A stretch of DNA of 64,000 nucleotides from an uncultured Candidatus Saccharibacteria bacterium (GCA_964399295.1 CAYNQD010000001.1:203944-267943); one strand, 5' to 3'. Numbered from the stretch's first letter, positions 32,475 to 60,790 are shown. The notes: generated from the sequence alone by a model not told the origin. Numbers and translations: made by a program.

Positions 32475-32549
32475 GGCCCTATCGTCTAATGGTTAGGACA
32501 GCAGGTTTTCATCCTGCAAATCGGAGTTCGATTCTCCGTAGGGTCACCA
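32475..32549 (+). tRNA. tRNA-Glu (anticodon UUC), 75 nt including CCA
   Basis: Manual fold: 7-bp acceptor stem GGCCCTA/TAGGGTC, anticodon stem CAGG/CCTG with loop TTTTCAT, T-arm CGGAG-TTCGATT-CTCCG. Confidence 0.85.
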
Positions 32550-38696: not shown

Positions 38697-39602
38697 ATGT
38701 TTCAAAGAAACGCGAGTACCAAAACCGATATCTACGCCAAGATAACCAATGAAATTATTCAGGCCATTGAAGCTGGTACCGGTGATTTTGCTATGCCCTG
38801 GCATAAACAAGCTTATGCTGGACTGCCACGGAATACTGTGACTAAACAGCCATACCGAGGTATTAATACGTTGTCTTTGTGGTTAGCTAGGCGGAGTGCG
38901 GGTTTTGCCAGTTCATACTGGGCATCATATTTGCAGTGGAAATCACTGAAAGCTCAGGTGCGGCAAGGTGAAAAGGGTTCAACTGTTGTGTTTTATAAGC
39001 AGCTGGAGAGCGAGGAGGAAAACGAAGACCGTGACGAAACTGAAAACCAAGCTCGAGCGGTGATCCGGTATTCCCACGTGTTCAACGGTGATCAGGTGGA
39101 TGGTTGGTCACAGACTGAAGCTCCAAGTCTGGCCAACCACACTAAATTTGCTAAAGCGGTGTGTTTTATCAATGCTCTTAAAAGCGATATCAAGCATGGT
39201 AGTGATACTGCTTATTATAGTCCAGCGCAGGATTGTATCTTTATGCCGAATCAGTCAATGTTTCAGGATACCAAAGCTGGTTCTGCCATTGAAGGCTACT
39301 ATGCGGTTTTGTTCCATGAGCATATTCATTGGTCTGGACACAAGACACGGTTAAACCGTGACATGTCTGGGAAATTTGGCTCTAGTTCTTACGCTATGGA
39401 AGAGTTGGTGGCAGAGCTTGGCGCATCGTTTCTGTGTGCTACGCTTGACATCAATACTTACCCGAGACCAGATCATGCTTCATACATTGCCAGCTGGCTT
39501 CAGGTACTGAAGGAACACAAAACGGCGATCTTTGCGGCGGCTGGTGCGGCTTCGAAAGCCAGTCTGTTCTTGGAAACATTAGTGGAGACTAATCGAAATT
39601 AA
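38697..39602 (+). CDS. ardC: ArdC-like antirestriction protein (ssDNA-binding N-domain plus zincin metalloprotease C-domain)
   Basis: ITNEIIQAIEAGTG…PWHK…KQPYRGINTLSLW…GEKGSTVVFY (DUF1738-like) and HEHIHWSGH. Confidence 0.75.
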   Translation: MFQRNASTKTDIYAKITNEIIQAIEAGTGDFAMPWHKQAYAGLPRNTVTKQPYRGINTLSLWLARRSAGFASSYWASYLQWKSLKAQVRQGEKGSTVVFYKQLESEEENEDRDETENQARAVIRYSHVFNGDQVDGWSQTEAPSLANHTKFAKAVCFINALKSDIKHGSDTAYYSPAQDCIFMPNQSMFQDTKAGSAIEGYYAVLFHEHIHWSGHKTRLNRDMSGKFGSSSYAMEELVAELGASFLCATLDINTYPRPDHASYIASWLQVLKEHKTAIFAAAGAASKASLFLETLVETNRN

Positions 39603-40806: not shown

Positions 40807-40830
40807 TCAAATAAATAAAGGGGAATTGAA

Positions 40831-43071: not shown

Positions 43072-43120
43072 AGTAGTTCTTTTTTTAACCCGACCTTGGT
43101 GGTCGGGTTTTTCTTTGTAT
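42874..43120 (+). repeat. Direct repeat copy 2 (ardC 3′ end plus terminator)
   Basis: See copy 1. Confidence 0.8.
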
Positions 43121-43256
43121 GATAGATAAAACATATTTTAAATCCAATGTATTACTGATGGTTTGGGTTGTTTTGTTAGTTTTGTATGTGTTGGGAAAAT
43201 TTACATGTACAAAATAACTCTTAGATTTTATTTTACTTTTTTATTATCACTCAACT

Positions 43257-43958: not shown

Positions 43959-44388
43959 TTTCTGAATGTTTTTTCGCCTCGTATCGCTACTTTGCTTTTG
44001 CCTTAATGGTCGATTCTTTGATGCTGAATGTCTAAACTTGAGTTATTATCAATTTTGTGAACCAACTTCACAGAAATAAAGTATGTAATTTGGGTGGTAA
44101 ATTGCACAATTATTGTGCGGGAAAGTGTCGATCTTTTTTACACCTACTCATTTTAAAGCGTTGTTTTTGTAGTGTGCTGAATTTAGAAAGCTGGGAAATT
44201 AGCTGTATTATTTGCTTTATTGGAAGAAGCTAAATTATTTATAGTATTGGCGTGGATTTTGCTTTGTCTTTGTCTATTGTACATAGGTGCAGGTTGATAG
44301 CGGTCTAATTTTAGGCTATGTCTGCATTAAACGTTGAAACCACTTTTTTGTCCAATAGACTGGAACATTAAGACTGGAGAGCATAGTC

Positions 44389-45360
44389 ATGAAAGTCTCT
44401 GATTTTCTGGAGTGGTTTGAAAAAATATCGCACCTTAGTCGTGGTCAAAAAGAACAGGTCAGGCATTGCTTAAGCGAGGTGAAGCCGCAAGCTGCGGTCG
44501 TGAAATATCTTGAGGATTCTTTTGAAGCGAATTGTCCGGTCTGCCAGGCAGATCGCTTTTATCGTTGGGGACACCAAGCGGGGTTGCAACGTTTTCGCTG
44601 TTGCGCATGCAAGCACACATTCACGGCTATTTCGGGAACCCCTTTGGCTCGTCTGCGGCATAAGGAACAGTGGTTGAATTACAGCGCGGCGTTGATTGAA
44701 GGCTTGACCGTGCGAGCGAGCGCCAAGCAATGCGGAATAGACAAAAATACCAGTTCTCGCTGGCGCCATCGGTTCCTGACTTTGCCGGCGGCGACTAAAG
44801 CCAACCACTTGCATGGGATCATCGAGGCGGATAAGACCTTTTTTCCTTCTTCCTGCAAAGGCCAACGCCATCTGAATCGTCCACCGCGTAAACGCGGCAA
44901 GCAAATCCATGCACGTGGCACAGGCAAAGACCAGGTGCCGGTGTTGGTAGTACGCGACCGCTCTGGTGCAACAGCGGATTTCATATTGAATGCGCTTGAT
45001 AAAAAGACAATTGAGCCTCCTTTGCGGGCTATTCTGGCGAAGGATGCCATTTTCTGTAGTGATGGCGCTGCCGTCTACCGGTCTGTGGCTCATAGCCTCG
45101 GAATTACCCATCGCCCCGTCAATCTCTCTGCTGGGATTCGAGTCATTGCTGGCGTTTACCATATCCAGAATGTTAATGCCTACGACAGCCGACTTAAACA
45201 ATGGATGAAAAGATTTCATGGGGTCGCGACCAAATACTTGGCAAATTATCTGGGCTGGCGTAGATGGTTGGAACGTTGGGGCGAGCACAACTCGCCAATC
45301 GTTGCGCTCCAGGTCGCTCTCGGGAGAGAAAATCAGTTTCAACTATTAACGCAGATATAG
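44389..45360 (+). CDS. IS1595-family transposase (N-terminal zinc-ribbon plus DDE_Tnp_IS1595)
   Basis: CPVCQ…C.C zinc ribbon, ~320-aa length, DDE-domain layout; GC ~52%. Confidence 0.7.
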   Translation: MKVSDFLEWFEKISHLSRGQKEQVRHCLSEVKPQAAVVKYLEDSFEANCPVCQADRFYRWGHQAGLQRFRCCACKHTFTAISGTPLARLRHKEQWLNYSAALIEGLTVRASAKQCGIDKNTSSRWRHRFLTLPAATKANHLHGIIEADKTFFPSSCKGQRHLNRPPRKRGKQIHARGTGKDQVPVLVVRDRSGATADFILNALDKKTIEPPLRAILAKDAIFCSDGAAVYRSVAHSLGITHRPVNLSAGIRVIAGVYHIQNVNAYDSRLKQWMKRFHGVATKYLANYLGWRRWLERWGEHNSPIVALQVALGRENQFQLLTQI

Positions 45361-45480
45361 CCACAGTCTTGTCTTCGCAAACATTGATGTGGCGAATTGT
45401 TATAAAGAGGTGTTCGATTTACATTGCTTGAGTATTTGTTATTGTCAAATATAAAGAGTGATGTTAGGCTAACATGCTAT

Positions 45481-45897
45481 ATGCTATTAAAAAATTTATC
45501 AATTAAAAAGAAATTATTACTAGTAGCCACCATCACTTTATTAGCCCTTTCAGCTTTAGTTGCTAATGTTTTAATACCGTACAATATCAGTGAATGTGAA
45601 CTGGCGCAGTTGGTGTTTATCCAGTACGCAGGAAATAACGATGGTCACGAAAGTGTTGAAGATCTAATCGACGATGGAATCATCTACTATGGTACTAGGG
45701 GTCCTCACGGAATCTTTGACTTTAGTAAGACTTACAGACTAGGTATCGTAGAGCGTTGGAGAGGTAAGGCAAAGGGGAAATACCTTGAATATGACCTCAC
45801 TAGAACAGGTAACATGACTGGTTTTAGAAAAATGACAGTATCCCTTGAAGAAATAGAACACGGAAAAAGAGAGCTAAAAAAAATTGTTTGCCCCTAG
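45481..45897 (+). CDS. Small TM-anchored protein co-transcribed with the giant RTX gene. The ORF track starts at TTG 45424
   Basis: MLLKNLSIKKKLLLVATITLLALSALVANVL N-terminal helix; stop is 9 nt before the SD of the next gene. Confidence 0.45.
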   Translation: MLLKNLSIKKKLLLVATITLLALSALVANVLIPYNISECELAQLVFIQYAGNNDGHESVEDLIDDGIIYYGTRGPHGIFDFSKTYRLGIVERWRGKAKGKYLEYDLTRTGNMTGFRKMTVSLEEIEHGKRELKKIVCP

Positions 45898-45906
45898 GAG
45901 GAATAG

Positions 45907-48900
45907 ATGGTTACTAGAATCACTTCAGGTAGTTTAAATGTTTCTGAATTTACTCCAGAAACAATCGTTAGTTTATATTTGTATGGCACGAAGACACCCC
46001 CGCAAAATCTATATGACCGAATAAAACCAGAGAGTTTCTTAAGCAACTTAACTACTCTTAAAGACGAACAAGGTAATTTTGTTGCCAATGTTGTAAATAT
46101 GGCCGTTGACGGACAAGCGTATTTGGACAACGGAGCGGGACGGTTTGCTACACCTGCCGAGTTTGAATTAGTCAAAATATTCTTTGAGGGGTTTAATAAC
46201 TTCTTTTTTAACTTAGATCCTGGCTCGTATACCTATGACCAACTAAACGACAAGGTAACATTTTTTACTCAACTCACTGGTGGTCATGATAATCGTCTCG
46301 TCATTGAGCAGTTAGGTAGAAATGACGGCAAAGATAATGGTGTAGATAGGCCTTTTATTTTTAATAATACAAGTTTTACTCTCCAAACAAATCAAAATGC
46401 AGCTCAGGAATTAAGATTTGTTGTTACCCCAGCAGGCGAAAGATATATAGAAAACGTTGCTATTCGCACTTTTGATGATAATTTTGATTTTGTAGGGGGA
46501 AGTTTTGCTTCAGTTATATTTAACGCGGCAGAAGCAGGAAAATATGATCCTTACAGAATTGGACATCGGGTAGAATTTGATTACAACAACAATAATTTAA
46601 CAGTTGACCCTAAATACACACTTAACGATTATAACCAGCATCTTCAATTTATCGCGGATACTTCGAAGCAAGTGGCAACTAATAGTGATAGTGATAAACT
46701 TAGAGAAAGGCTTGAAGCAAAAGAAATTTTGTTATACGAAAAATCAGGGTATAGCATTGTTTATGGTACGTATGAATCTCAACAACTACATGCTGTTACA
46801 GAATTACTCTCACTATTTAGTAAACCAAGTCTTATCCTTGCCGGAGAAGGTGCTGATAAAGTTACCGGAGGATCGAAGAGTGATCGTCTTTATGGACATG
46901 AAGGTAACGATGATCTTTTTGGTCTTGATGAAGCTGACTATCTTTTTGGTGGTTCAGGTGACGATGAACTTGATGGCGGTCCAGGCAATGATTATCTTTT
47001 TGGTGACGTTTCGTCAGAAAATTTTCTAGGTGCAGAAGAAGTTAAATTTACTTCCGGTAACGACACTCTTGATGGTGGCGCTGGCAATGATATTCTTGAT
47101 GGCGGTCCAGGCAATGATACTTACAAATTCACCAATGGATTATTCGGCGGATCATACGGTAATGACACCATCATAGGTGGCTCTGGAAATGTTGATCGTA
47201 ATGACGTAATTGAAATAAACGGTACAATTTTCTCTGGCAATCCCACTAAAACTCAAAATAACAATGAATACAGCCTAAATAGCAAGACTATTCAGGTGCT
47301 TAGTGGAGATGTTACAACTGAGGCCACCATTAAAATTATTGATGGTTCCAATTCTATTGAAGTTCGAGGCTTTACTACTGGTGATTATGGTATTAATTTC
47401 CTAGATACAACAACTTTACGTCCAGAACGTGATTTCTACACTGGAACAACGAGTAACGGTCTTCTGTTTCTCAATTGGTTTCGTGAGGGGGATCTTTCAT
47501 ACTCGATTGATGTTTTAAACGATGGGACGGTGTTGCGACCTGCCGGTGCTGGCTTCCAAGATGCCGTTCTGACGATTCCTGCAAACTTGAATTTTGTTCA
47601 ATCAGGTGGTGTTGATTTAAGAGGGCTTCGGGGTTCACAGGAAGACGTCCTTGTTGAGGTTAAGTATTCAGTCAGTCCAGCGAATAGTCCTATCGTCGAC
47701 CTGGTAACCTTTACAACGGACACTGTCAGATACTTATTTATCGGAGACGGTGTCGATAATCGCGGCGGGCAAGCTTTTGGTGATCCACACTTAATCACAT
47801 TCGATAACGTTAGCTATGACTTTCAAGCAGCTGGTGATTTTATCCTTACTCGTGCCACAAGCGGGCCTGATTATGAAGTACAAGCCCGGTTTTCAGCTTT
47901 TTCATCAGCAGTATCGGTAACTACCGCTATGGCCACCAAGGTCGATGGAATAGCTGTATCGATACAAATCGATGGTGATACAGGTGATTTGTTGATTGAT
48001 GGCAGTAGTGTGAATATCGCTAATGGTGGTTCAGTAGCTGTTGGTGGAGGCTCCATTAGTCGAAACGGTAGAAAAATTGAAATTGATCATGGTAATGGCG
48101 ATAAAACCTCAGTGGATGTTTTTAGCAGTTTCATGAATGTCACTCCGTCACCTTCTCTTGCGAGAATTCCAGGCTCGTTGGAAGGACTGCTTGGCGATGC
48201 TGACGGCAATCCTGGTGATGATTTTCAATTAGCAGATGGCACTGTACTTCCCACACCGTTACCAATCAATACTCTCTATGGTAGTTATGCTGCTAGTTGG
48301 CTGGTAGCCGATAGCGAATCTATCCTTCCTGGTGCTCGTGAGTTGTTTGATGCACCTGATAGAATCATCACTATAGATAGCTTGCCACAATCTTTGCGAC
48401 AAGCCGCTGAGGCCGCTGTTGCCGCAGCTGGAATTACTAATCCGATTTTGCGTGAGGCTGCAATTTTAGACTTTGCCTTAACTGGGAATATAGAATTTAT
48501 TGAAGCAGCCAAGCTTACAAACGACATTTTTGATCCGATTATCGATACAGTAGCTGTTGATCCGATCAATAATCCGGTAGTGATTCTAACGACTAACCAG
48601 ATTGAACTTGATGAAGCAAACCCTGCCCACCAGACCGCTACACTCACCGTCTCACGTGGTTCAACTACAGGTGATTTAACAATTAACTATAATGTCATTG
48701 GAGTCGGTGCTTATCCTGCCAATACAGATGATTTTTCAGGAAATACTTCCGGTACAGTGGTCATTAATGATGGTGAGGACACTGCAACATTTACCGTTGG
48801 AATAGTTGATGATCTATTAGATGAAGAATCAGAACAATTTGATGTAGCTATTGCGTTAGATGGTACTCAAGCTTCTGCCTATGAGTTATTAGTATCTTCT

Positions 48901-49296
48901 GTGCGTATGACTATTTTGGATGATGACGATGGGCCGGTCTTAAACGAAGTAATTGGAACAACCTCCAGTGATTATCTTGTTGGTACAGGTAATGCAGATA
49001 TTATTCACAGTCTGGGTGGTAGTTATGACAGATCATTTGGTGGACTCGGGGCCGATATTTTTGCCTTTGGCTCTGAAGCCTTGAATGGTATTCGCGAACG
49101 CGATGTCATTATGGACTATGAAGTTGGTGTTGATGCTATTTTGCTTGAAGACGGTGCTTCAGTTGGTTCTATTCGTCAGACCTCAACCGGTGCAGTGATT
49201 TTCCTCGAAGGTGATCTTGATGCGATTTATGTACAAGGCGAAGGTGTTCTGCCTGGTAATCTCACATTCTTGCCTGAAAGTCTGTTATTAGCCTGA
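45907..49296 (+). CDS. Giant (1129-aa) RTX-type calcium-binding repeat protein with VWD and Calx-beta-like domains (putative T1SS-secreted adhesin)
   Basis: Strong SD aggagg; nonapeptide repeats GGSGDDELDGGPGNDYLFG and GGAGNDILDGGPGNDTY; GDPHLITFDNVSYDFQAAGDF VWD hallmark; DDFSGNTSGTVVINDGEDTATFTVGIVDD Calx-beta-like; no N-terminal signal peptide. Confidence 0.7.
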   Translation: MVTRITSGSLNVSEFTPETIVSLYLYGTKTPPQNLYDRIKPESFLSNLTTLKDEQGNFVANVVNMAVDGQAYLDNGAGRFATPAEFELVKIFFEGFNNFFFNLDPGSYTYDQLNDKVTFFTQLTGGHDNRLVIEQLGRNDGKDNGVDRPFIFNNTSFTLQTNQNAAQELRFVVTPAGERYIENVAIRTFDDNFDFVGGSFASVIFNAAEAGKYDPYRIGHRVEFDYNNNNLTVDPKYTLNDYNQHLQFIADTSKQVATNSDSDKLRERLEAKEILLYEKSGYSIVYGTYESQQLHAVTELLSLFSKPSLILAGEGADKVTGGSKSDRLYGHEGNDDLFGLDEADYLFGGSGDDELDGGPGNDYLFGDVSSENFLGAEEVKFTSGNDTLDGGAGNDILDGGPGNDTYKFTNGLFGGSYGNDTIIGGSGNVDRNDVIEINGTIFSGNPTKTQNNNEYSLNSKTIQVLSGDVTTEATIKIIDGSNSIEVRGFTTGDYGINFLDTTTLRPERDFYTGTTSNGLLFLNWFREGDLSYSIDVLNDGTVLRPAGAGFQDAVLTIPANLNFVQSGGVDLRGLRGSQEDVLVEVKYSVSPANSPIVDLVTFTTDTVRYLFIGDGVDNRGGQAFGDPHLITFDNVSYDFQAAGDFILTRATSGPDYEVQARFSAFSSAVSVTTAMATKVDGIAVSIQIDGDTGDLLIDGSSVNIANGGSVAVGGGSISRNGRKIEIDHGNGDKTSVDVFSSFMNVTPSPSLARIPGSLEGLLGDADGNPGDDFQLADGTVLPTPLPINTLYGSYAASWLVADSESILPGARELFDAPDRIITIDSLPQSLRQAAEAAVAAAGITNPILREAAILDFALTGNIEFIEAAKLTNDIFDPIIDTVAVDPINNPVVILTTNQIELDEANPAHQTATLTVSRGSTTGDLTINYNVIGVGAYPANTDDFSGNTSGTVVINDGEDTATFTVGIVDDLLDEESEQFDVAIALDGTQASAYELLVSSVRMTILDDDDGPVLNEVIGTTSSDYLVGTGNADIIHSLGGSYDRSFGGLGADIFAFGSEALNGIRERDVIMDYEVGVDAILLEDGASVGSIRQTSTGAVIFLEGDLDAIYVQGEGVLPGNLTFLPESLLLA

Positions 49297-49374
49297 TTTT
49301 AATTAACTACCCAATATATCTGATACAACCTATTTTTTGCCGTGGCAAAATTAACGCTATAAGGAATTCCAATA

Positions 49375-49971
49375 ATGAGAAAAATACTATGCAGTGGATT
49401 TCTGGTTCTTACCTTGATTTTCACAACTTCTATAACAGCCAATGCCACCACTCTTGGCCTAACCACTCAAGACCCATCACTGGACTCCAGCTTTGCTTTC
49501 GTTGATTATTTTGAGTTTAATTCCAGTGGTGATTTATCGTCTTTTGGCGGAATCATTGACTCATCAAGCGGTATTTCCCCGTTTGGATTGACAGAATTTT
49601 CATTTGGCATCGGTTTTTCTTTGTCTGATCCTACCAATACGGCGGCTGGTGGTTTTGATGTATTTGATGGCAATGGTTTGTTTTTGAGTGGTGACCTCCT
49701 TGCCGTTGGTTATACTGAAAACGTGATTGAGTTCCAGTTTGATCAATTGACCGGTTCAGCCGCTGGTAGTTTTGGTTCATCCGCTCTTATGCTAATCAGT
49801 TTTGTTGATCAGCTCGGTACCAATCCCTTTGCAGCATTAGTTGATGGTACTTTTTATGATGCTTCAGTTAAGATAGCCAGCGTGGTACCGCTATCTGAAC
49901 CCACTATCCTACCCATGTTTGCTTTGGCCTTATTTTTAATAAGTCTGGTTCGATTGAAACACTATAAATAG
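49375..49971 (+). CDS. Secreted Gly/Ser/Asp-rich protein with a PEP-CTERM-like C-terminal anchor
   Basis: Signal peptide; C-terminus VPLSEPTILPMFALALFLISLVRLKHYK resembles the PEP motif followed by a TM helix and a basic tail. Confidence 0.4.
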   Translation: MRKILCSGFLVLTLIFTTSITANATTLGLTTQDPSLDSSFAFVDYFEFNSSGDLSSFGGIIDSSSGISPFGLTEFSFGIGFSLSDPTNTAAGGFDVFDGNGLFLSGDLLAVGYTENVIEFQFDQLTGSAAGSFGSSALMLISFVDQLGTNPFAALVDGTFYDASVKIASVVPLSEPTILPMFALALFLISLVRLKHYK

Positions 49972-50099
49972 TATTTGAGACAATCATTAATCAAATCAAA
50001 CAACCAAGGGAATTGGTTGTTTGATTATGACTGCTGGTAGTGTTTCCATTTAACCAAAACTACCATCCAATTTGCTTATTAGAGTACTAAAACCCTACT

Positions 50100-50840
50100 T
50101 CAATCACACCCCCACAAAACCACCCCATCAACAACAGACTGAACAGAATTAGGCTTGGTGGCATTAAGTATGCTAAATAAATCATCAACAACCAACCCAG
50201 TTGCTTCTGGTTCATCGGCTTTGATAAATCGGTAATGAGTGTTGCATTCACGATCTTTCCATATTTGCGGGTATGTGCGTACCGTATAACCTTCGTTTGT
50301 GAGTAATTCGGCTACGTAGGTAAATTTCCGAGCAAGGTCAGCATTCCACTCCACGAGCTTTAAAGTATGGAGGCTTCCCAATAGGGCGAGAACAGGTGAT
50401 TTTCCAACTTGACCTGCCAATTCTTTAGCCATCCAAGCGTCACGATCGATTCCTAATTTAATATCAGCATCAATGGCTATTAATTTAAAACAGTCATTTT
50501 GCCTTTGCAATTCTACTAAATTCTCTATTAAAACTCGAAAATCAGGGTGATCAATTGGTGGGGCAATTTCAATATCAGCCACTTTGGCTTGATCTTGAAT
50601 TAATTGATCAATCGTGGATTGTTGATTGCTGGCAATTTCTAAAGCCACTGTCAGGCAATCGTGCTGTTGCCGGTAATCAGTGATAATTGACTGAAAAAAT
50701 TGGAAAGATTCTGGTCGTTTGTGCGTTTCACCGATAATAGTGATGCTATCGGGCTTAATCCCTTGAAGAATAAAGTCATGACTGCCTTTAGCAGAGGTAT
50801 CTAAACCAAATAGCAGAGCTAGGAAAATGAGATAGCGCAT
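50100..50840 (-). CDS. Secreted ChaN/TIKI/TraB-superfamily (haem-binding-like) protein
   Basis: Signal peptide; ITIIGETHKRPES resembles the ChaN GE.H motif. Confidence 0.4.
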   Translation of the reverse strand: MRYLIFLALLFGLDTSAKGSHDFILQGIKPDSITIIGETHKRPESFQFFQSIITDYRQQHDCLTVALEIASNQQSTIDQLIQDQAKVADIEIAPPIDHPDFRVLIENLVELQRQNDCFKLIAIDADIKLGIDRDAWMAKELAGQVGKSPVLALLGSLHTLKLVEWNADLARKFTYVAELLTNEGYTVRTYPQIWKDRECNTHYRFIKADEPEATGLVVDDLFSILNATKPNSVQSVVDGVVLWGCD

Positions 50841-50918
50841 TAGATTGGCCAGTTACCCTGTACTTCTATGAGATCAAGTAACTCTTATTAATCCCGCTCT
50901 GCCAAATAATTCTCAAAA

Positions 50919-51809
50919 CTAATTGACTAGCCTCTCTTCAAGCTTATTTAACTCAACTTTTAGGTTTTCAAGAGTAGCTTCTAACTTATTGATTTCTGCT
51001 TTCAGCGCTTCAATATTTTTGGCCACCTCCGGATCGGTCGGTATACCAATCTCTTCATGTTCCCAGGCTAACGCTACCAGTCTAGGATGATCAATATATG
51101 GATTGCGGTTGCCTTGTTTTTCTTCAATCCGGTTGTTTCTTTCTTTTTCCGTTGCATCAACCGGATCAGCTTTGTGCCACTTAAATAAAGTTTCGCGATC
51201 GGCTATTTTAGAAATATCGCCAGCCGCGTTAGGATACATGGTATAGAAATAATATACGGCTCTAGCCAAATTTCCCTTGTGGTCTTCACGGGGTTCAAAT
51301 ACTTCATTCCCTATTGTTTCACTGTATGAATCAATTTCATCCGTGGGAATGCTATTTCTTATGATTTTTAACCCCGGATCACCGGCAGTTATCCATTTTT
51401 CGGTTAAATGATCATCAATTTCTCCGAAAGGCAGGTTACTTCTTGTTGAATTAACATCCTTATGAGTCGGAAATAAATGATGTAGGTCTGATTTCATGGG
51501 AAATTTTTCATTAAACCAGGACTGCGGTATGGTATGTTCGGCATTAATTGGATCAAGAAAGGTAGTGTCCTTTGCTTTTTGCTTGAACCCAGTATAAACA
51601 CCTACCACCATACCATCAGCATTTTTATCAATAAAGCTATACATCGCTCTTCTGGCTTTGTCATAGCCAAGATCATTATGTTTGCCTTCATGCCAGTTTT
51701 CTTTCAACCATACTCGCAGGGCTTGGCCGGATAAATCATCTGGTGGCAATGGCCCAGCAAAACTAAAAACGCTAAATAGGATAAATGCAACGGCGACAAA
51801 GATTTTCAT
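50919..51809 (-). CDS. Secreted Endonuclease I-family DNase with a C-terminal coiled coil
   Basis: AEHTIPQSWF, DLHHLFPT, VNSTRSNLPF, FEPREDHKGNLARAVYYF match the EndA/Endonuclease_1 blocks. Confidence 0.7.
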   Translation of the reverse strand: MKIFVAVAFILFSVFSFAGPLPPDDLSGQALRVWLKENWHEGKHNDLGYDKARRAMYSFIDKNADGMVVGVYTGFKQKAKDTTFLDPINAEHTIPQSWFNEKFPMKSDLHHLFPTHKDVNSTRSNLPFGEIDDHLTEKWITAGDPGLKIIRNSIPTDEIDSYSETIGNEVFEPREDHKGNLARAVYYFYTMYPNAAGDISKIADRETLFKWHKADPVDATEKERNNRIEEKQGNRNPYIDHPRLVALAWEHEEIGIPTDPEVAKNIEALKAEINKLEATLENLKVELNKLEERLVN

Positions 51810-51939
51810 AATAATCTCCTTGGCGTGTGGATTATTAAAATCAAATGGTAGTTGACGCTTTAAGAACTAAACGTGCAGGCTAATAATAATACAATTAGGA
51901 ATTTTGTGGCTAAGAAGATAGCAGAGATAGTTTGACTGT

Positions 51940-51992
51940 TAAGGGTAGTCAAACAAGTGTAGCGGCCAAGGGCATTTGCCCTTGGCCGCTAT
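51940..51992. promoter_or_regulatory. Two adjacent perfect palindromes upstream of the second recombinase
   Basis: gtttgactgttaagggtagtcaaac, and agcggccaagggca-tt-tgcccttggccgct (14-bp arms). Confidence 0.45.
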
Positions 51993-52094
51993 AATGAAAA
52001 AACTTCAATTTTAACTGTTCTTCTTATAACGATTCTGAACTAAAATACTTTAGAGGTTTTATTCCTATTATAATATTCATTTATTCAGTATCTT

Positions 52095-54146
52095 ATGGCT
52101 GTTAGTGAGGTGGTGATGAATACAAAAAACGAACCAAAACGGGTCGGTATCTGGGTTCGCGTATCAACGGAAGATCAGGTACGGGGTGAAAGTCCCGAAA
52201 CCCATGAACGTCGCGCCCGCTTATACGCTGAAGCTAAAGGTTGGAACGTGGTGGAAGTCTATCGCCTAGATGCTGTCTCCGGTAAAACCGTTAAAGATAC
52301 CCCAGAAGCCAAACGGATGCTTATTGATGTGCAAGATGGCCATATCACTGGGTTAATCTTCTCCAAACTGGCCCGTTTGGCCCGTAACACCAAAGAACTA
52401 CTGGAATTCTCAGAAATCTTCCGCGACTGTGGAGCTGATCTCATTTCACTGGCCGAAAGCATCGATACCTCTACCCCCGCTGGTCGACTCTTCTATACGA
52501 TGATTGCCGCGATGGCGCAGTGGGAACGCGAAGAAATCTCAGAAAGAGTGGCGGCAGCGGTACCGATCCGAGCTAAAGCTGGTCAACCAACTGGTGGGCA
52601 AGCGCCGTTTGGTTATGAGTGGAGAGATAAGAAGCTGTATATTGATCCAGCCGAAGCCAAAGTCCGTAAATTGATCTTTGAATTGTTTCGTGAACACAAA
52701 CGCAAAAAATTAGTAGCTAGACTATTAAACGATCAGGGTTATCGTACCCGAAACGGTGGTAAATTCTCTGACACCACCGTTGACCGACTGCTCCGTGATC
52801 CAATTGCGATGGGTACCCGCAGGGCCAACTATACTTGTACCAAAGACAACAACAAAGCCTGGAAGCTAAAACCAGAATCAGAGTGGGTTTATTTAAAGGT
52901 AGAACCCATTGTTTCAGAAGAACTATGGCAGGAATGCAATCAATTCTTGGATGAGCAAAGAAGCAAGTTAAAGCGGGTTACTAAATCAGCTGTTTATCTG
53001 TTTTCTGGCTTAGCGTACTGTATTTGTGGGAAGAAGATGTATGTGCCGTCCAATAGCCCAAAATACACCTGCAAAGAGTGTCGCAACAAAATACCGGTTG
53101 ATGATTTAGAAGCGGTATTTCATGAACAAATCAAGAATTTCTTGGTATCAGAAAAAGAGATAGTTAATCACTTAGAACAGGCTAATGTTGAGGTGAAAGA
53201 AAAGGTTGAACTCCTGGGGGTATTAGAAAAGGAAACAAATAAGCTTAATCAGGAAATTGATAAGCTGTATGACCTCTACCAGTCCAGTATGATTGATAAA
53301 CATGGATTTGGGCTGAAATACAAGCCACTAGCTGAACGGCGAGAACAGTTAGACGAACAAATCCCTAAACTGCAAGCTGAGATTGATATTATGAAAATAT
53401 CGCAATTGTCTCAGGAAGTAGCTATTGCCGAAGCACGTGATTTATATGGTCGCTGGCCCTCACTTCCCTTTGCAGAAAAAAGGCGGATCGTGGAAGCGAT
53501 TGTGGAGAAGATAACGATTGGTAACGGTGAGATTGAAATCAATCTTTTCTATACTCCCCCAGCCTCAGAGATACCGCAACACAACTTAAATAACGGAGGA
53601 ATAACTAATATTTATTCCTCCTTAAATCATGGTAATTTGGCAACAGATGCTCATAGACGCGTCGCCTTTTTGCCATTTGTCCGTACAAAGCTTAAATCAT
53701 TGATTCCTAAGTCATATGATTTTGAGCCTAAGGCTCTGGGTGAGCATCTACTGAAGCGGAGGTTATTTCTTGAGTTGTCACAAGCTGAGGTTGGCAAGCT
53801 ATTCAATGTTTGCTCCTTCACGGTTGGTAACTGGGAAAAAGGACATTCAGAACCAAAAATATTCCAGATACCGATTCTAATCGAATTTCTTGGTTACGAT
53901 CCGATTAATCACCACTCTAATTCAATTGCTGAATTATTGCTGGCTAAACGGAAGAAATTAGGCTGGACTCAGAAAGTGGCTGCTAAAAATCTGGGCGTTG
54001 ATCCGTGTACTTGGTCGAGCTGGGAATGTGGTAGAGCAATCAAGACTTATAAACATCGGCGGTTGGTGGCTGAGTTTTTAAATATGGATGAGGGGGTTGT
54101 TGATGTGATAATGAAATTGCAGTGGAATGAGCTACATGAACGGTGA
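52095..54146 (+). CDS. Large serine recombinase with a C-terminal extension carrying two XRE-type HTH modules
   Basis: VGIWVRVSTEDQ…SPETH catalytic domain, recombinase domain, Cys4 zinc ribbon (CICGKK…CKEC), coiled coil, then LSQAEVGKLFNVCSFTVGNWEKG and LGWTQKVAAKNLGVDPCTWSSWE. Confidence 0.75.
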   Translation: MAVSEVVMNTKNEPKRVGIWVRVSTEDQVRGESPETHERRARLYAEAKGWNVVEVYRLDAVSGKTVKDTPEAKRMLIDVQDGHITGLIFSKLARLARNTKELLEFSEIFRDCGADLISLAESIDTSTPAGRLFYTMIAAMAQWEREEISERVAAAVPIRAKAGQPTGGQAPFGYEWRDKKLYIDPAEAKVRKLIFELFREHKRKKLVARLLNDQGYRTRNGGKFSDTTVDRLLRDPIAMGTRRANYTCTKDNNKAWKLKPESEWVYLKVEPIVSEELWQECNQFLDEQRSKLKRVTKSAVYLFSGLAYCICGKKMYVPSNSPKYTCKECRNKIPVDDLEAVFHEQIKNFLVSEKEIVNHLEQANVEVKEKVELLGVLEKETNKLNQEIDKLYDLYQSSMIDKHGFGLKYKPLAERREQLDEQIPKLQAEIDIMKISQLSQEVAIAEARDLYGRWPSLPFAEKRRIVEAIVEKITIGNGEIEINLFYTPPASEIPQHNLNNGGITNIYSSLNHGNLATDAHRRVAFLPFVRTKLKSLIPKSYDFEPKALGEHLLKRRLFLELSQAEVGKLFNVCSFTVGNWEKGHSEPKIFQIPILIEFLGYDPINHHSNSIAELLLAKRKKLGWTQKVAAKNLGVDPCTWSSWECGRAIKTYKHRRLVAEFLNMDEGVVDVIMKLQWNELHER

Positions 54147-54352
54147 AATGATTTTTTCCCATTTGCTGGAATTGAGATGTGTAACTAGTTCGATAAATAC
54201 ATTGTTTTTTCAAATCACTTTTCATTCATGATAATTTTAAAGTTGGTTAATTAGAGCTTTACAGATGAAATCATTGAGGTGTAAATTGACAAATCTAAGA
54301 ATTAAATAAAAAATTCGGAAAAATTCATAATAGAAACGATGGAGATTGAATA

Positions 54353-55099
54353 ATGCCACCAGAGCATCGATTACATGTGCTGGCAATTTCAGCGACGTTG
54401 ATTGCTTATTATTGGTTTATGAAAATTATTTTATCTCCTGGATTTCATTGGTTACCCCAATGGAGTAGTTTCTTCATTATGTTTTTTTCGTCTTATGGTG
54501 TGTTTAGATTTTTTCACTGGACAATAGCATTTCTATTGAATAAAGTGCGATTGCTTAAACAACTTTTTCTTGGGAAATATTACATTGAAGGTACTTGGGT
54601 TGGTTATTATTATGGGGAAGACGGGAAAATATACTATGTAGTGGAAATTATTGACCAGGAAGTAGGTGCTCCACTACATATTAGTGGTCATTCATTCGCG
54701 AATAACAACAAACTCTATGCGACCTGGCGGTCTGTTACAGTAAGTTTCTGGGTGGACTGGCATAAACTAATTTATGCATATAATTGTGTAATTCTTGAAC
54801 CATCTAAGATAATTGATGGAATAACAGTTTTCAGCTTTCATTGTATAAATGAGGATTGTTTCCATACTAAAAAATTTCGGAGTCAAGAATTTATTAAAAT
54901 AAATCTGATTAAAAGCCTGTTTTGTAATAATCCTAGCAGAATTATTGGGTACGCAACTAACACAGATTCAGGAAAACGGCTTGAACTTTATGAGCAAAAA
55001 TTGAGTAACGACGTTTTAATAGCTGAAAACGCTTTACTAGGAGCAAAAACATTCCATGATTCAGTTGTGAAATCACTTAACAAGACTAGTGTTCAATAG
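54353..55099 (+). CDS. AT-rich hypothetical protein with an N-terminal 2-TM region and a globular C-terminal domain
   Basis: Hydrophobic helices in residues 8–70; ~33% GC versus ~47% for its neighbours. Confidence 0.4.
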   Translation: MPPEHRLHVLAISATLIAYYWFMKIILSPGFHWLPQWSSFFIMFFSSYGVFRFFHWTIAFLLNKVRLLKQLFLGKYYIEGTWVGYYYGEDGKIYYVVEIIDQEVGAPLHISGHSFANNNKLYATWRSVTVSFWVDWHKLIYAYNCVILEPSKIIDGITVFSFHCINEDCFHTKKFRSQEFIKINLIKSLFCNNPSRIIGYATNTDSGKRLELYEQKLSNDVLIAENALLGAKTFHDSVVKSLNKTSVQ

Positions 55100-55228
55100 C
55101 AAAAATAAGATAAATTATTTTGGATTATAACCATTTGTTTTCAAAAATATACTGTTCAAAACAGTATATATTGAATTAATACAATTAAACACTAGCAACA
55201 ATTAATACATAAAAGCAAAGACCCTACT

Positions 55229-57949
55229 TCACCTTTCCTTCCCCTTCTGCAACGACCGCGCAATAACCTCAGAAACCGCCTTTCTTCTAGCAGCCGCATC
55301 ATCTGAGTCAGTAACTTGCTGGACGGTACGGACTTTGTATCCCCGTACCACTTGCTCGGTCGGGGTGAATTTGCCTAGACTATCGAGGAATTCAATGATC
55401 TGTTCAGAGGTTATGTACCGAACCCGTCCTTGATCTTTGAGGTCAAGATTTTCTTCCACGAATTTGGCCAGTTTCTTCACATGCCGTTCTGTTCCGCCAA
55501 TCAATACAACCTCTGAATAACCAGCAGCAAAGCATTTTTCAAGGCCACCCAGTTCCCAATCTTTGGTGGTGGTGACTGAAACTTGGCAAGCCACGCGTAA
55601 TTTATCTCGTACCAGTGATATATCTACCCGTCCAGCGCCATCCAGAATCGTTTCCTCAATAGTGGCACGGAAACCGCGCTCTTCAGCTAATTGTTTGATC
55701 AATTGCTGCAAGTATTTATGTTGTCGTCCACCACGGCCAGGCTCTGGAATATCCTTTGGTGGTGTCGATTTGGCTCTTTTCTTCGGTGGCGTGGTTTCGA
55801 TTGATGGGATCGGTTCAGCAGCAGTTGGTATTTCCGGTTCAACTGGAATCTCTACGGTTTGCGGTGTTTCAGGTGACACTGTTTCTTTCTTGGTTGTCTG
55901 TTTAGCTGGTTTTGGCTCAGGAAAAGCGATTTCTTCAGGAATTAGCGGTGGTTCGCTATATAGCTCCCGATTGCGATCAATTAGAGCTTCATATTGGAAA
56001 GCGGTGATTCTCGGTTGACTCTCCACAAACCCCAAGGGAATAGATACAGCCAGTGCTTTAGCAGTATAGTTTTTGACGTAACAGGCAAATTCGGTTTGCT
56101 CCTTCCCTTTTCTCATACCAAGCAAAAAATCAGCGTCAGTACGGTATTCTGAATCTAAGATACCGGCATCTTTGGCACTCAAGCCACCAGCAAACTTGAT
56201 GGTGGTGGAAGCTAATACACTAGCCCTGAGACCACCAGACAGCTGATCGAGATTTTGATGCGCAAATACTAAGCCTACCCGGTATTTTCTAGCTTGGTTT
56301 AGTAGATGTGAGATATTGTCGTCAAAATAGTCTTGGGCTTCATCGATATAAACAAAGGCGGAGCGTCGCTTATGTGGTGGCATGGCGGCACGCTGAATGG
56401 AAGCCTGGGCAATTAAAGCAATAAAGAAACGTCCAAAAATGGCTGCACCATCTTGTCCCAGCAAATCCTTGGCCGTATTGATAAGAATGATCTTGCCTTG
56501 ATTTAATAATTCAAAGATATCAATTCTGTTTCGAGTATGAGAAAACATCCGTTCCAAGGATGAATTGGATAGTACTCCCCACAGACGGGTTAATATCTGC
56601 TTCTTGGTTTCACTAAACTTTCTATCAAAGAATTGGGTAGCAAAGAAGCTACGAGCGGTGCCGGTCAGTTTCTCCATATAGGGCCGGAACCGTTCACTGT
56701 TTTCCATTAATTCTCGTAGCGTATGGATATTGGCGTCCGGTATTTCCAAAAGTAGCCGAGCTAAATAACGGAAAATCAGTCCTTGGCGTTGGGTTAATTC
56801 GGCTCCGAGTAGCGCCCCAAAGAAGTATTCATACAGTTCAATGGTGGCATTCAGTATCTTTTCTTTATCTACCGGCGCATAACCACTTAACCGATCTTGG
56901 TTAAAGTCAAACATATTGAGACAAACCGGATACTCAATATCATTCGGATCAACTATCACCAAGCGTTCAGCCAGGGCTGGATCGCTAAAGTATCCCAGTT
57001 TAACTATGGTGTTGATCAAATCACCCTGGCTATCAATCACCACAATCGAACGACCATCTTCTTGCGAGCGCACAATGTCATGATGAATCAGAAACTGCAT
57101 TAATTGGGTTTTGCCGTGACCGGTACCACCGACGATATGAGTATGTTCAAAGCGGGCTGGGAAAGGAATGGCAAACGGTAGCTGGCGGTATAGCAGTGAC
57201 TGGAATGGCGTGTCACCCAAATAAGTATCAACCAATACCGCTGGTTCATTAATTCGGCTTTCGGTGGGTAGGATTACCTTCGGTGGCCGGTTGAATTTGG
57301 CGTCTGGTGGATGGCCGGAAGCTCTTAAGATATTCTGATCAAAGACTTCCCGCTGTCTTCCAAAAACCTGGGCTTCAACAACGTCTGCGTCATAGAAAGT
57401 CACCATGAGGCGCTGGATGACTTCCGGCAGGTTGTCGCACAAATCATAGGCATGTGCCTTCGGAAACACCACTGAATCATCATCAGCCAACCCGTTTTCA
57501 TCAACATCAATAAAGGCTGATTCGGGAAAATATTCAAGCATCCCTTTAAAAAGCCAGACCAGCTTTTCCCGCCAAATTGATAGCAAACGATCCGGTGAAT
57601 TGAGAAAGTGTTTATGGCGTTTCAGGGTGGTACGGAGTCGTATCCCCTCTTCAATGGTGAGGTTTTTGATCTCGGTGTCATTGGGTAAATCTCCAATCAT
57701 CGAATCTTCATACAGCAATTGTTCGATGGTGTAATACAAAGCGCCACCGAGTGGTACTCCAGGCAGTGTGCCGTGCCGTTCGCAAGCATCAGCAATTATA
57801 TCCACGATAAAACTGCTGATTTCATCTTGGTTATTAAGGGGGTGATGTATACGCTGTGTGCGTTTAAGCTCATGCAGAAGAGCCAGCGTTTCTGCCTCTT
57901 CTTTCTTTTTCGGTGAAGGCAGAATCCAATTAAGAAAATTAGATGACAC
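55229..57949 (-). CDS. FtsK/HerA/TraG-superfamily P-loop ATPase (906 aa) with an N-terminal domain, a Pro/Glu-rich linker and a C-terminal possibly nuclease-like domain
   Basis: Walker A VGGTGHGKT, Walker B FVYIDEAQDY, T4CP/TraG-D_C-like AHQNLDQL; C-terminal block DGAGRVDISL…ACQVS. Confidence 0.55.
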   Translation of the reverse strand: MSSNFLNWILPSPKKKEEAETLALLHELKRTQRIHHPLNNQDEISSFIVDIIADACERHGTLPGVPLGGALYYTIEQLLYEDSMIGDLPNDTEIKNLTIEEGIRLRTTLKRHKHFLNSPDRLLSIWREKLVWLFKGMLEYFPESAFIDVDENGLADDDSVVFPKAHAYDLCDNLPEVIQRLMVTFYDADVVEAQVFGRQREVFDQNILRASGHPPDAKFNRPPKVILPTESRINEPAVLVDTYLGDTPFQSLLYRQLPFAIPFPARFEHTHIVGGTGHGKTQLMQFLIHHDIVRSQEDGRSIVVIDSQGDLINTIVKLGYFSDPALAERLVIVDPNDIEYPVCLNMFDFNQDRLSGYAPVDKEKILNATIELYEYFFGALLGAELTQRQGLIFRYLARLLLEIPDANIHTLRELMENSERFRPYMEKLTGTARSFFATQFFDRKFSETKKQILTRLWGVLSNSSLERMFSHTRNRIDIFELLNQGKIILINTAKDLLGQDGAAIFGRFFIALIAQASIQRAAMPPHKRRSAFVYIDEAQDYFDDNISHLLNQARKYRVGLVFAHQNLDQLSGGLRASVLASTTIKFAGGLSAKDAGILDSEYRTDADFLLGMRKGKEQTEFACYVKNYTAKALAVSIPLGFVESQPRITAFQYEALIDRNRELYSEPPLIPEEIAFPEPKPAKQTTKKETVSPETPQTVEIPVEPEIPTAAEPIPSIETTPPKKRAKSTPPKDIPEPGRGGRQHKYLQQLIKQLAEERGFRATIEETILDGAGRVDISLVRDKLRVACQVSVTTTKDWELGGLEKCFAAGYSEVVLIGGTERHVKKLAKFVEENLDLKDQGRVRYITSEQIIEFLDSLGKFTPTEQVVRGYKVRTVQQVTDSDDAAARRKAVSEVIARSLQKGKER

Positions 57950-58330
57950 TTAATTTATCTCAATAACTTCCTCTCCCCCGAAAGTACTGGCAGCACCAAG
58001 TACATTATGAAAGGTGTGGGCCGCTTCTTTGATTTGTTCTTCAACCGCGATCATTTCCACGATATCTTTGCATTCTACCGTCTTTCCCTTTTCCAGATCG
58101 TTGACGGAGATAGTGAGATTAATCATTTTGAAAGCCACACGAGAAGCCAGCCCGATAAGACCACTGCCTGGATCAACAATCTTGGCTCGTTCATACAGCA
58201 TAGTATCGCCAAGCTTGTATTTCTTGATGTTGGTTTTTTCTTCATCAGTTAGCTCCGCTCTAACTGACACCGTGAAGATTATCTTGCCCATCATGCCGGT
58301 CTTTTGATCCCGACGCAACAACAGCTTCAT
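57950..58330 (-). CDS. 126-aa hypothetical protein sandwiched between the two ATPases
   Basis: Stop and start abut the neighbours (58330/58401 and 57950/57949); no known domain. Confidence 0.4.
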   Translation of the reverse strand: MKLLLRRDQKTGMMGKIIFTVSVRAELTDEEKTNIKKYKLGDTMLYERAKIVDPGSGLIGLASRVAFKMINLTISVNDLEKGKTVECKDIVEMIAVEEQIKEAAHTFHNVLGAASTFGGEEVIEIN

Positions 58331-58400
58331 CGCTACCTCCTTGAATGTATGAGATAAGTAGCTAAAGTATATATATTTTATGGTAAGTCGGGAAGAAAAT

Positions 58401-59594
58401 TTAACAATTGAAACTACCTAAATCATGCGGATGGATTGTGGTGGCACTAAATGGTCGGCTGGGTGCGCCGTCTATCATGAGTTTTAGGTAGATTCCACGG
58501 TTTGGTAGATTGATAAGGTCGGTGGTGTTGAAAACTGGTTGGAATTCCCTAGCTATGAGTGGCGCATCCTCTGGCCCCAGTCGAAATGAAATGAGAGTGC
58601 CAGCATTGGCTAATACGGCGTGTCGCACGTCTGATTCCAGTTGATACAGGTGCTGATTGGCTAAAACTAAGCCGATACGGTATTTACGCAGTTCTGAGAC
58701 CATATTGGCGATGGAAAGTGTGGTGAAGCTCTGGAATTCATCAATATAGATCAGGAAATTACGTCTTTCAGTTTCTGGTATATCTCCACGGCTCATAGCC
58801 GCTAGACCTAAGGTAGTGACTAAAATCGCTCCAAACAATGAAGCACTGTCTTCTCCTAAGCGACCTTTGGCTAAATTCACAATCAGTATCTTCCCTTCGT
58901 CCATAATGGTACGAAATTGCAGATTGACCGGAGCAGTGGTGAAAATCCGTCGTAGCTTTGGATCGGCCAGAAATGCCCCAACTTTGTTTTGTATGGGTGC
59001 GATCATTTCCTGACGGTAGCGGGGGTTATAGGCAGCGAATTCTTCTGTCCAGAAATGACGGACTTGTTCGTTTTTAACTTTGGCAATGACAGTCTGACGA
59101 TAGGTTTTATCAGCAATCATCCGCAGGATATCGGGCAGTTTAGCGTCACCAGCTTCAATCAAGGCGTAGAGGGTATTTCTGAGTATATGCTCCATGCGTA
59201 CACCCCAAGCTTCAGTCCAGAGTTTTTTGAAGGCTTCCATCAGGCCAGAGACGGCTAGTGGTATACGGGATGAGTGTACCTGGCGGAGTGGGTTATACCC
59301 GTATGGTTGGTGGATATCAGGGACGTTGATATAGACCAGATTATTTCTTCGCCTTTCTGGAACGTTGGCTACCAGTCGTTCGGCTAAGTCACCATGCGGA
59401 TCAATGACGCAAAGACCGCGACCGCTGTGGATGTCTTGCAGAGCTAGGGTTTCTAAAAGAGTAGTCTTCCCTGCTCCAGTACGGCCAATTACATAGATAT
59501 GGGAAAAGCGATCATCGAGTTTGATGCCGAAGGTGCGATGGGGATGGCGGGCGTTGGTGTGGGCGAGGTATGAAATGGATTGATTTGAATACAC
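58401..59594 (-). CDS. FtsK/HerA/TraG-superfamily P-loop ATPase (397 aa; a bare ATPase domain with no TM segment)
   Basis: Walker A IGRTGAGKT, VIDPHGD, Walker B LIYIDEFQSF, LANQHLYQL; paralogous to the core of the 906-aa protein. Confidence 0.55.
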   Translation of the reverse strand: MYSNQSISYLAHTNARHPHRTFGIKLDDRFSHIYVIGRTGAGKTTLLETLALQDIHSGRGLCVIDPHGDLAERLVANVPERRRNNLVYINVPDIHQPYGYNPLRQVHSSRIPLAVSGLMEAFKKLWTEAWGVRMEHILRNTLYALIEAGDAKLPDILRMIADKTYRQTVIAKVKNEQVRHFWTEEFAAYNPRYRQEMIAPIQNKVGAFLADPKLRRIFTTAPVNLQFRTIMDEGKILIVNLAKGRLGEDSASLFGAILVTTLGLAAMSRGDIPETERRNFLIYIDEFQSFTTLSIANMVSELRKYRIGLVLANQHLYQLESDVRHAVLANAGTLISFRLGPEDAPLIAREFQPVFNTTDLINLPNRGIYLKLMIDGAPSRPFSATTIHPHDLGSFNC

Positions 59595-60731: not shown

Positions 60732-60790
60732 TATAGTTTTTAATTTGTTTGGTAATATCTATTATTTATAACTGATTAATTTTTACCACA

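Follow-up and report, generated by a model that had tools for sequence, protein, structure and literature searches.

What a 1129-residue protein that combines haemolysin-type calcium-binding (RTX) repeats, a von Willebrand D (VWD) domain and a Calx-beta module is doing in a small-genome bacterium, and whether it serves there in host attachment or episymbiosis, are the questions raised by a gene at positions 45907..49296 of a 64,000-nucleotide stretch deposited for an uncultured Candidatus Saccharibacteria bacterium (GCA_964399295.1, CAYNQD010000001.1:203944-267943; the whole stretch is called the window). The window is part of a 594,086-bp NCBI contig. Its DnaB clusters at 90% or more with 'Candidatus Paceibacterota' in protein clustering, and positions 1-28 kb hold ordinary housekeeping and cell-wall genes. 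By these features the host contig looks like one from the candidate phyla radiation (CPR), Paceibacterota-like, and its size and DnaB bear out the "small-genome bacterium" of an earlier reading made without database searches (the sequence-only reading). The RTX/VWD gene is the middle member of a conserved three-gene cassette, and this cassette is cargo of a serine-recombinase mobile island. The most likely interpretation, held with moderate confidence, is that the CPR genome acquired the cassette horizontally and carries it as a dispensable passenger, not as a native episymbiosis factor.

The open reading frame (ORF) of the RTX/VWD gene starts with ATG and matches exactly the extent given in the sequence-only reading (coordinates here and below are on the plus strand unless a minus strand is stated). 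Pfam and NCBIfam hidden Markov model (HMM) scans were judged against curated cutoffs. HemolysinCabind scored 62.3 bits against a cutoff of 23 over three stretches, and the repeats lie in two blocks, as had been claimed. Block 1 (aa ~313-440; 46843..47226) is defined by the Pfam match, by PDB matches to CyaA and HlyA, by DNA repeat family D2 and by five canonical nonapeptides at aa 348, 357, 390, 399 and 415. Block 2 (aa ~1012-1080) contains a single clean nonapeptide at aa 1045, and aa 1015-1080 match the RTX block of the serralysin C-terminus in the NCBIfam/HMM scan. This block opens a C-terminal RTX-like region (aa 1012-1129; 48940..49293), delimited by the serralysin match and the AlphaFold2 (AF2) model, that ends in a putative uncleaved secretion signal; the terminus reads ...PESLLLA, and the ends of relatives are likewise acidic and then hydrophobic. 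Between block 1 and the VWD domain lies a central beta-rich region (aa 441-617; 47227..47757), with strands in the AF2 model at a predicted local distance difference test (pLDDT) score below 50 and no HMM match.

The composition of the protein is that of a type I secretion substrate. It contains no cysteine and 165 Asp and Glu residues against 64 Lys and Arg, and the hydropathy scan revealed no N-terminal hydrophobic segment, signal peptide or transmembrane segment, with a 19-residue peak of only 1.25 at aa 836; the earlier statement that an N-terminal signal peptide is lacking therefore holds. Together with the C-terminal RTX block and the acidic-then-hydrophobic end, these features agree with the type I secretion system (T1SS) substrate that had been proposed, and the protein is best read as a modular, adhesin-like, Ca2+-dependent RTX protein of the T1SS type, at home on the surface or in the matrix, belonging to an uncharacterised subfamily.

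The VWD domain (aa 620-784; 47764..48258) was recovered by Pfam (50.4 bits against a cutoff of 22.9, over aa 623-779), by alignment with FCGBP and by Foldseek. The VWD domains of FCGBP align with it end to end at E values from 2e-24 to 2e-33, and the GLCGNxNGNPxDDF motif of FCGBP corresponds to GLLGDADGNPGDDF in the window protein. Its GDPH motif (aa 625-628; 47779..47790), which had been read from the sequence, aligns with the GDPH motifs of FCGBP; it is identical in all five of the closest homologues, and across 12 homologues G and H are invariant and D and P are kept in at least 90%. In FCGBP and other eukaryotic proteins, cleavage at GDPH is placed between Asp and Pro in PMC10880436, and the cleaved fragments of FCGBP are described in PMC8267560 as held by disulfides. 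By analogy, D626|P627 is a putative autocleavage site, and self-cleavage of the window VWD may occur at this bond, which we treat as a lead only.

The AF2 model, which covers aa 431-1129 and was built from a 12-sequence alignment, is confident from aa 620 on (pLDDT about 80-95). Two beta-sandwiches flank a helical module in it, and the short beta-strands of the C-terminal region that follows are read as a beta-roll. In Foldseek searches against the PDB, about 274 columns of the model align to the D assemblies of MUC2, MUC5B and VWF (E 5e-9). The helical module that follows the VWD (aa 787-874; 48265..48528; Cys-free, helices at pLDDT 80-90) probably corresponds to C8, because the aligned columns exceed the VWD alone; its AILDFALTG motif is invariant among the five closest homologues. 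The second sandwich is the Calx-beta domain (aa 879-1007; 48541..48927). Its fold matches the CBD1 domains of NCX1 and CALX (target TM-score 0.70-0.76, E 6e-9 to 1e-7, 21-27% identity), and its Pfam score of 24.7 bits lies just below the cutoff of 27. The Pfam check that the sequence-only reading had suggested placed HemolysinCabind and VWD above their cutoffs and Calx-beta just under, the latter call standing by fold and falling short by HMM, and structure prediction recovered both the D-assembly and the Calx-beta folds.

In contrast to these modules, the first ~300 residues (45907..46842) form a head domain without annotation. It has no Pfam or NCBIfam match, a profile of 19 head domains found no PDB sequence at E<=1, and the AF2 prediction of the N-terminal 312 residues (5-sequence alignment, pLDDT 42) was unusable for a fold search. 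It does define a profile family, with 413 cluster representatives at E<=1e-3, in which the match lies nearly always at the N-terminus of the target and TNLYLYG, G(A/P)GRFA, ER.YI.N, DNFDF.GG and IDP..IG are the conserved motifs. Carriers of the head domain reach 4188 aa. All eight that were scanned are RTX proteins, and their middle parts consist of VWA, Calx-beta, cadherin/Big_9 or M10 protease domains.

Two further genes accompany the RTX/VWD gene. The upstream one encodes a small partner of 138 aa (45481..45897; a TTG at 45424 is an alternative start), with a single strongly hydrophobic N-terminal signal or anchor segment, as had been noted, followed by a ~95-aa domain between two conserved cysteines. 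A profile made from the upstream proteins of three relatives, which lie in the same position in loci L005, L007 and L008 (L-numbers denote relatives' loci compared with the window), matched the window protein at 25 bits (E~4e-8), and the next window ORF reached 2 bits; the hydrophobic segment and both cysteines are common to all four small partners. The Shine-Dalgarno sequence GGAGGA (45897..45902) overlaps the TAG stop of the small gene and is separated by a 4-nt spacer from the ATG at 45907. The nine nucleotides that had been placed before the Shine-Dalgarno sequence thus reach to the start codon instead. This gap is also 9 nt in L007, and in L005 the two genes overlap by 4 nt. The close coupling to a small partner, membrane-bound or secreted, that had been claimed is kept in relatives.

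The downstream partner (198 aa; 49375..49971), identified by homology, has a signal peptide and a PEP-CTERM-like tail consisting of PLSEP, a transmembrane segment and RLKHYK. It is 51-56% identical to the proteins encoded directly downstream of homologues in L004-L006 and L024. The L024 copy scored 27.6 bits with Pfam PEP-CTERM (PF07589; cutoff 20.7); the window copy has no Pfam hit at E<=0.1, yet it aligns residue for residue with this orthologue. The PEP-CTERM tail is the exosortase signal of outer-membrane bacteria, and we know of no route by which a PEP-CTERM protein would be sorted in cells without an outer membrane. No exosortase was found among the scanned window ORFs, the scope that applies to all negative results for exosortase and export genes below. 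The order small gene, RTX/VWD gene, ~200-aa gene is also found in L004-L008. When the surroundings of the cassette were scanned for promoters and terminators, fewer sites turned up than in shuffled sequences, and a literature search returned no report tying a PEP-CTERM protein to a T1SS adhesin operon.

The relatives of the cassette point to bacteria with two membranes. The closest full-length homologues are 42-49% identical, all on short metagenomic contigs with a GC content of 0.50-0.67. Among 185,579 species genomes scanned for the family and its modules, most occurrences fall in Cyanobacteria and the Alpha-, Beta- and Gammaproteobacteria, the same Pfam combinations are present in Rhodobacterales and cyanobacteria, and no further CPR homologue with the full architecture was found. 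The cultured gammaproteobacterium Marinobacterium profundum (L024) encodes, in this order, a giant VWD/cadherin/RHS protein, the PEP-CTERM orthologue of the downstream partner, an ATP-binding cassette (ABC) exporter and an HlyD-family membrane fusion protein (MFP). In Terricaulis, Rhizobacter and Ramlibacter, ABC and MFP pairs lie directly upstream of head-domain carriers; the relatives with adjacent ABC and MFP genes are L024, L052, L055 and L063. By analogy with them, the RTX/VWD protein would presumably be secreted via a T1SS. HMM scans of the window ORFs found no T1SS ABC, MFP or TolC gene, so the export route that the sequence-only reading had proposed to look for was not met with in these 64 kb. 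To our knowledge, CPR cells have no outer membrane, TolC-type T1SS or exosortases, and a search for literature on RTX proteins in Patescibacteria or on T1SS and TolC in CPR returned nothing relevant. One uncultured Saccharibacteria metagenome-assembled genome (MAG) does encode a VWD protein of another type (L053 8792-11725, 977 aa), with a Sec signal peptide, an internal transmembrane segment and no RTX repeats. This protein, whose gene adjoins dnaK, contains a VWD with GDPHLITFDG, the same helical module as the window protein (with 'VALTG') and repeated C-terminal domains, and it is a CPR-native manner of VWD display.

The surroundings of the cassette show what kind of DNA it belongs to. From about 32.5 kb onward, the window contains an island with ArdC, insertion sequence (IS) remnants, IS1595, the cassette, Endonuclease I (EndoI), a second serine recombinase and an ATPase trio resembling type IV coupling proteins (T4CP). 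Its probable left edge is a tRNA-Glu (32475..32549; ARAGORN), overlapped by the 3' end of a serine recombinase ORF (32486-33976, minus strand; Pfam). Immediately upstream of the cassette stands an IS1595-family transposase gene (44389..45360; NCBIfam 180.6 bits) with a GC content of 0.51 against ~0.42 around it; it clusters at 90% or more amino acid identity with copies from Nitrosomonas mobilis and a Burkholderiales MAG. The cassette has a third-codon-position GC (GC3) of 0.29-0.35, compared with 0.40-0.48 for core and backbone genes.

The element backbone is shared with L086, in which the order is recombinase, EndoI, type I restriction-modification (R-M) with CBASS, and ArdC. EndoI (50919..51809, minus strand; Pfam 138 bits, 77% identical to the L086 copy) and the large serine recombinase (683 aa; 52095..54146; Pfam Resolvase and Recombinase, 78% identical) are divergent neighbours in both elements, and the ArdC-type antirestriction/zincin protein (38697..39602; Pfam, 76% identical) closes the other side of the cargo slot. 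The three proteins are thus 76-78% identical to their L086 counterparts, and the slot between EndoI and ArdC holds the RTX cassette in the window and the type I R-M and CBASS genes in L086. EndoI belongs to a ~295-aa subfamily; it carries a signal peptide and ends in a coiled-coil tail (aa ~258-295). It was considered as a member of the RTX cassette and rejected, since its backbone position is shared with L086; the homologues near the query carry uninformative names. Further to the right lies a backbone trio of a DUF87/T4CP-like ATPase (906 aa), a 126-aa protein and a VirD4-like ATPase (397 aa) (55229..59594, minus strand; Pfam), which shares 74-86% identity with its counterparts in L080 and L082; in L080 the copies adjoin Czc RND/OEP genes. 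The flanks of L086 hold HrcA, ferrochelatase and UbiK-like genes, and a truncated ComM-like gene lies beside it. Judging by gene content, the genomes of L080, L082 and L086 look proteobacterial.

The recombinase of the window corresponds to the ~520-aa recombinase of L086 (L086 8173-9747) fused in frame to aa 520-669, a segment that is 61% identical to a separate helix-turn-helix (HTH) gene of L082 (13638-14120). In L082, this HTH gene is located at the opposite end of the element, beside a Mg-chelatase/ComM fragment. Because the recombinase carries a segment found at the opposite end in L082, the two ends of the element seem to be joined in the window, and the recombinase ORF may contain the attachment site.

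A population variant shows that most of the cassette can be lost. The same 23-kb block, comprising the IS, the cassette, the recombinase, the ATPases, sugar-modification genes and a DEAD helicase, was found in independent assemblies of at least five sequencing runs, and the RTX/VWD ORF is 100% identical in at least five runs. A literature search on these runs gave no relevant result. The variant L079 (run SRR16797981) matches the window only at 44892-46960 and 59549-64000. The 12.6 kb in between (46961..59548) are replaced by a 1.1-kb IS3-family element, which cuts the RTX gene at about aa 352 and removes most of it along with the PEP-CTERM partner, a ChaN-like gene, EndoI, the recombinase and the ATPase trio; the DEAD helicase is 342 aa long in L079 against 1104 aa in the window. 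The independent short-read contigs break at ~32.7, ~42.9, 44.9 (inside IS1595) and ~67.9 kb. In none of these assemblies is the island connected with core genes of the CPR genome, the contigs with the island's 343-aa and 434-aa genes being only 2-4 kb long and breaking at repeats, and a lookup of the DegT gene for such a linkage returned nothing on record. The link is present only in the NCBI contig. Separately, the far end of L079 (10752-10810) matches window 32539-32597 at 93%; therefore, a related copy of this junction or recombinase is present right of the island, and it could be an attachment repeat or a tandem element.

Several other features of the island were observed. Next to the cassette, on the minus strand, a signal-peptide protein with weak ChaN/Tiki-like similarity (50100..50840; Pfam 23.2 bits, below cutoff) appears to be further cargo; its GC3 of 0.34 resembles that of the cassette, and no homologue was found in the relatives' loci. 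The 3' end of ardC with a hairpin-like sequence (TTTTTAACCCGGCC...GGTCGGGTTTTT) is present in two copies (39405-39641 and 42874-43112; 96-97% identity, 3.47 kb apart), which bracket three ORFs (40189-42494) of unassigned function, two of them with N-terminal hydrophobic segments. Directly after the 434-aa gene, 35615-35750 contains an inverted repeat of 25 nt (GGGTAGACTTGGGGACGTGGGGACG), whose arms are 96% complementary and stand 86 nt apart. Left of IS1595, 43100-44388 contains only overlapping ORFs, one of them resembling a transposase remnant by eye. A low-GC block (59700-64000, and 1-3870 of L011; GC 0.33-0.35, GC3 0.23-0.27) with genes for a dCMP deaminase, a DegT aminotransferase, a GFO/IDH/MocA oxidoreductase, an SDR and the 1104-aa DEAD/ResIII helicase stands where related elements carry RadC and defence cargo.

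Based on the results presented above, the cassette is built for a diderm envelope, as seen from the putative C-terminal signal and RTX repeats, the PEP-CTERM-like partner and the adjacent T1SS genes in relatives. In these diderm relatives, the protein would be exported C-terminus first by a type I system of the ABC/MFP/TolC kind and would then fold outside upon binding Ca2+. It may subsequently cut itself at Asp626-Pro627, and would act at the cell surface together with its exosortase-sorted partner. In the window, the cassette rides a proteobacterial-type serine-recombinase island within a CPR contig. The domain architecture, the conservation of the cassette, the T1SS genes next to relatives, its place as cargo and the deletion variant are shown by the data. 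We infer the passenger status, as we do the route of secretion, the autocleavage and the roles of the partners; a passenger is preferred to a native factor because the cassette is mobile-island cargo without a cognate T1SS or exosortase nearby. The sequence-only interpretation is supported only in part, and its proposal of a native host-attachment or episymbiosis factor is not supported, in view of four results, namely the lack of a T1SS in the window, the PEP-CTERM partner, the mobile cargo status and the deletion variant. Several observations nevertheless weigh against a mere passenger. The 3.4-kb ORF is intact with all family-invariant residues kept and, being also identical in at least five runs, is not visibly decaying. 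The low GC3 of the cassette, set against homologue loci with a GC content of 0.50-0.67 and an identity of 42-49%, argues against a very recent import from any sampled proteobacterium, and the cassette has possibly resided for long in AT-rich genomes, perhaps those of CPR bacteria. In addition, a suitable ABC exporter may be encoded elsewhere in the 594-kb genome.

A less probable explanation, although one to be taken seriously, is that the contig is an assembly chimera, in which the island, or at least the 23-kb block with the cassette, stems from a proteobacterium of low GC content that lives in the same community, such as a Nitrosomonas-like betaproteobacterium. The cassette would function normally there, with a T1SS and an exosortase. 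All features of the cassette are of the diderm type, the island joins the core only in the NCBI contig and never in short-read contigs, IS1595 is at least 90% identical to the Nitrosomonas and Burkholderiales copies, and the apparently joined ends of the element resemble an excised circle. The backbone relatives also lie in proteobacterial-looking genomes, their element loci having a GC content of 0.41-0.46, which does not discriminate them from the CPR core at 0.42. Tetranucleotide z-scores (core-core 0.60, cassette-core 0.44-0.45, cassette versus the host or neighbour flanks of relatives 0.31-0.38) are too weak for host assignment. The chimera is opposed by the 594-kb contig itself, which runs through all repeats and suggests a long-read assembly, a kind in which a shared 1-kb IS would rarely join two genomes. 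The tRNA-Glu and recombinase at the left edge resemble a genuine integration site, and core and island proteins are found on similar numbers of contigs (4-6). It is unlikely that the protein serves the CPR cell as a functional adhesin in host attachment or episymbiosis, crossing the one membrane through an ABC exporter whose gene lies elsewhere, and either taken over from the surface system of the host or imitating it. In favour of this reading, the ORF and the partner genes are conserved, closely coupled and undamaged, VWD, Calx-beta and RTX are adhesin-type domains, a VWD/GDPH surface protein exists in another CPR lineage (the Saccharibacteria protein above), and gene exchange with proteobacteria would suit a host-symbiont pair. 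However, the export machinery was not found in the window, no route is known by which cells that lack an outer membrane would sort the PEP-CTERM partner, the cassette is mobile-element cargo deleted in a population variant, and the full architecture occurs in no other CPR member of the species-genome scan. More doubtful still is the bolder proposal that a CPR bacterium captured a complete diderm adhesin cassette via a cross-phylum element and uses it, with export by a single-membrane ABC transporter and a GDPH self-cut that releases or activates the head, since no disulfides hold the halves together. A pore-forming RTX cytolysin of the HlyA/CyaA type is very improbable. The RTX repeats of the window protein do match the repeat blocks of CyaA and HlyA, but the other domains are of the adhesin type, no RtxC acyltransferase gene lies nearby in the window HMM scans, and the toxin was rejected for want of a hydrophobic pore region (the hydropathy peak of 1.25 given above) and for the NCBIfam RTX_toxin score (NF033943, 58 bits against a cutoff of 1000).

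Provided that the contig is correct, the window documents the delivery of envelope-specific cargo into a CPR genome by a proteobacterial-type mobile island, which bears on gene exchange between episymbionts and hosts. Were the CPR cell to use the cassette, as in the bolder proposal above, it would have taken from its proteobacterial host a tool with which to attach to that same host. The case for an episymbiosis factor is weaker than it seemed at first. Regardless of the host question, an uncharacterised RTX subfamily with two conserved partner genes is defined, and its bacterial VWD offers a simple, disulfide-free system for the study of Asp-Pro autocleavage; what this cleavage is for in mucins and FCGBP, and how its chemistry works, are presented as still open in PMC10880436.

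A comparison with known systems places the protein among familiar types and also sets it apart. Viewed from the mobile element, the island resembles serine-recombinase elements that insert into a ComM/Mg-chelatase-like gene (L086, L082), with which it shares a 74-86% identical backbone and the variable EndoI-ArdC slot. Unlike them, it carries an adhesin cassette and IS elements instead of defence systems, its ends seem to be joined, a tRNA-Glu and second recombinase adjoin it, and it lies on a CPR contig. The downstream partner resembles PEP-CTERM/exosortase proteins (PF07589) in its signal peptide, P-x-x-P, transmembrane segment and basic tail, and differs in that the window copy reads PLSEP and has no Pfam hit.

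Large modular RTX adhesins secreted by T1SS include LapA of Pseudomonas, MpIBP of Marinomonas, FrhA of Vibrio and SiiE of Salmonella. Like these, the window protein lacks a signal peptide, is acidic and Cys-free, has Ca2+-binding RTX repeats near its C-terminus and has swappable middle domains of the ligand-binding or extender kind, and like LapA-type adhesins its relatives are encoded beside ABC and MFP genes. In contrast to the four adhesins, it is much shorter and lacks a long tandem Ig-like extender; its head is a different, unannotated domain of ~300 aa, and its two conserved partners differ from those of the LapA type. No AA dipeptide, as in a LapG-type di-alanine site, is present in the first 130 aa, and no LapG or LapD gene was found among the scanned window ORFs.

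Eukaryotic D assemblies with GDPH autocleavage are known from FCGBP, MUC2, MUC5AC, RGM and SUSD2 (PMC10880436, PMC8267560), and the end-to-end alignment of the VWD domain with FCGBP includes GDPH.xTFD..YDF and GL(C)G(N/D)xNG.P.DDF. The disulfide-rich D assemblies of eukaryotes (VWD-C8-TIL-E) differ from the window protein, which has no cysteine and no TIL or E module and stands in an RTX context. The order of RTX, VWD, helical module and Calx-beta recurs in bacterial relatives that are annotated yet unstudied. These are the 'Calx-beta domain-containing protein' of Azospirillum brasilense (WP_330874665.1), which is 36-37% identical over aa 271-1011, and 'nidogen-like domain-containing' RTX proteins of Puniceibacterium and Roseovarius. 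These proteins are giant (the Azospirillum coding sequence is ~14.9 kb) or have other heads, are annotated generically, and were not seen with the small and PEP-CTERM partners. Thus, RTX adhesin-like T1SS substrates are already well known and the domain combination is present, unstudied, in public genomes. New here are the cassette with its two conserved partners, a VWD that lacks Cys, carries GDPH and is followed by a probable C8-like module, a head domain without annotation, and the location on a CPR contig.

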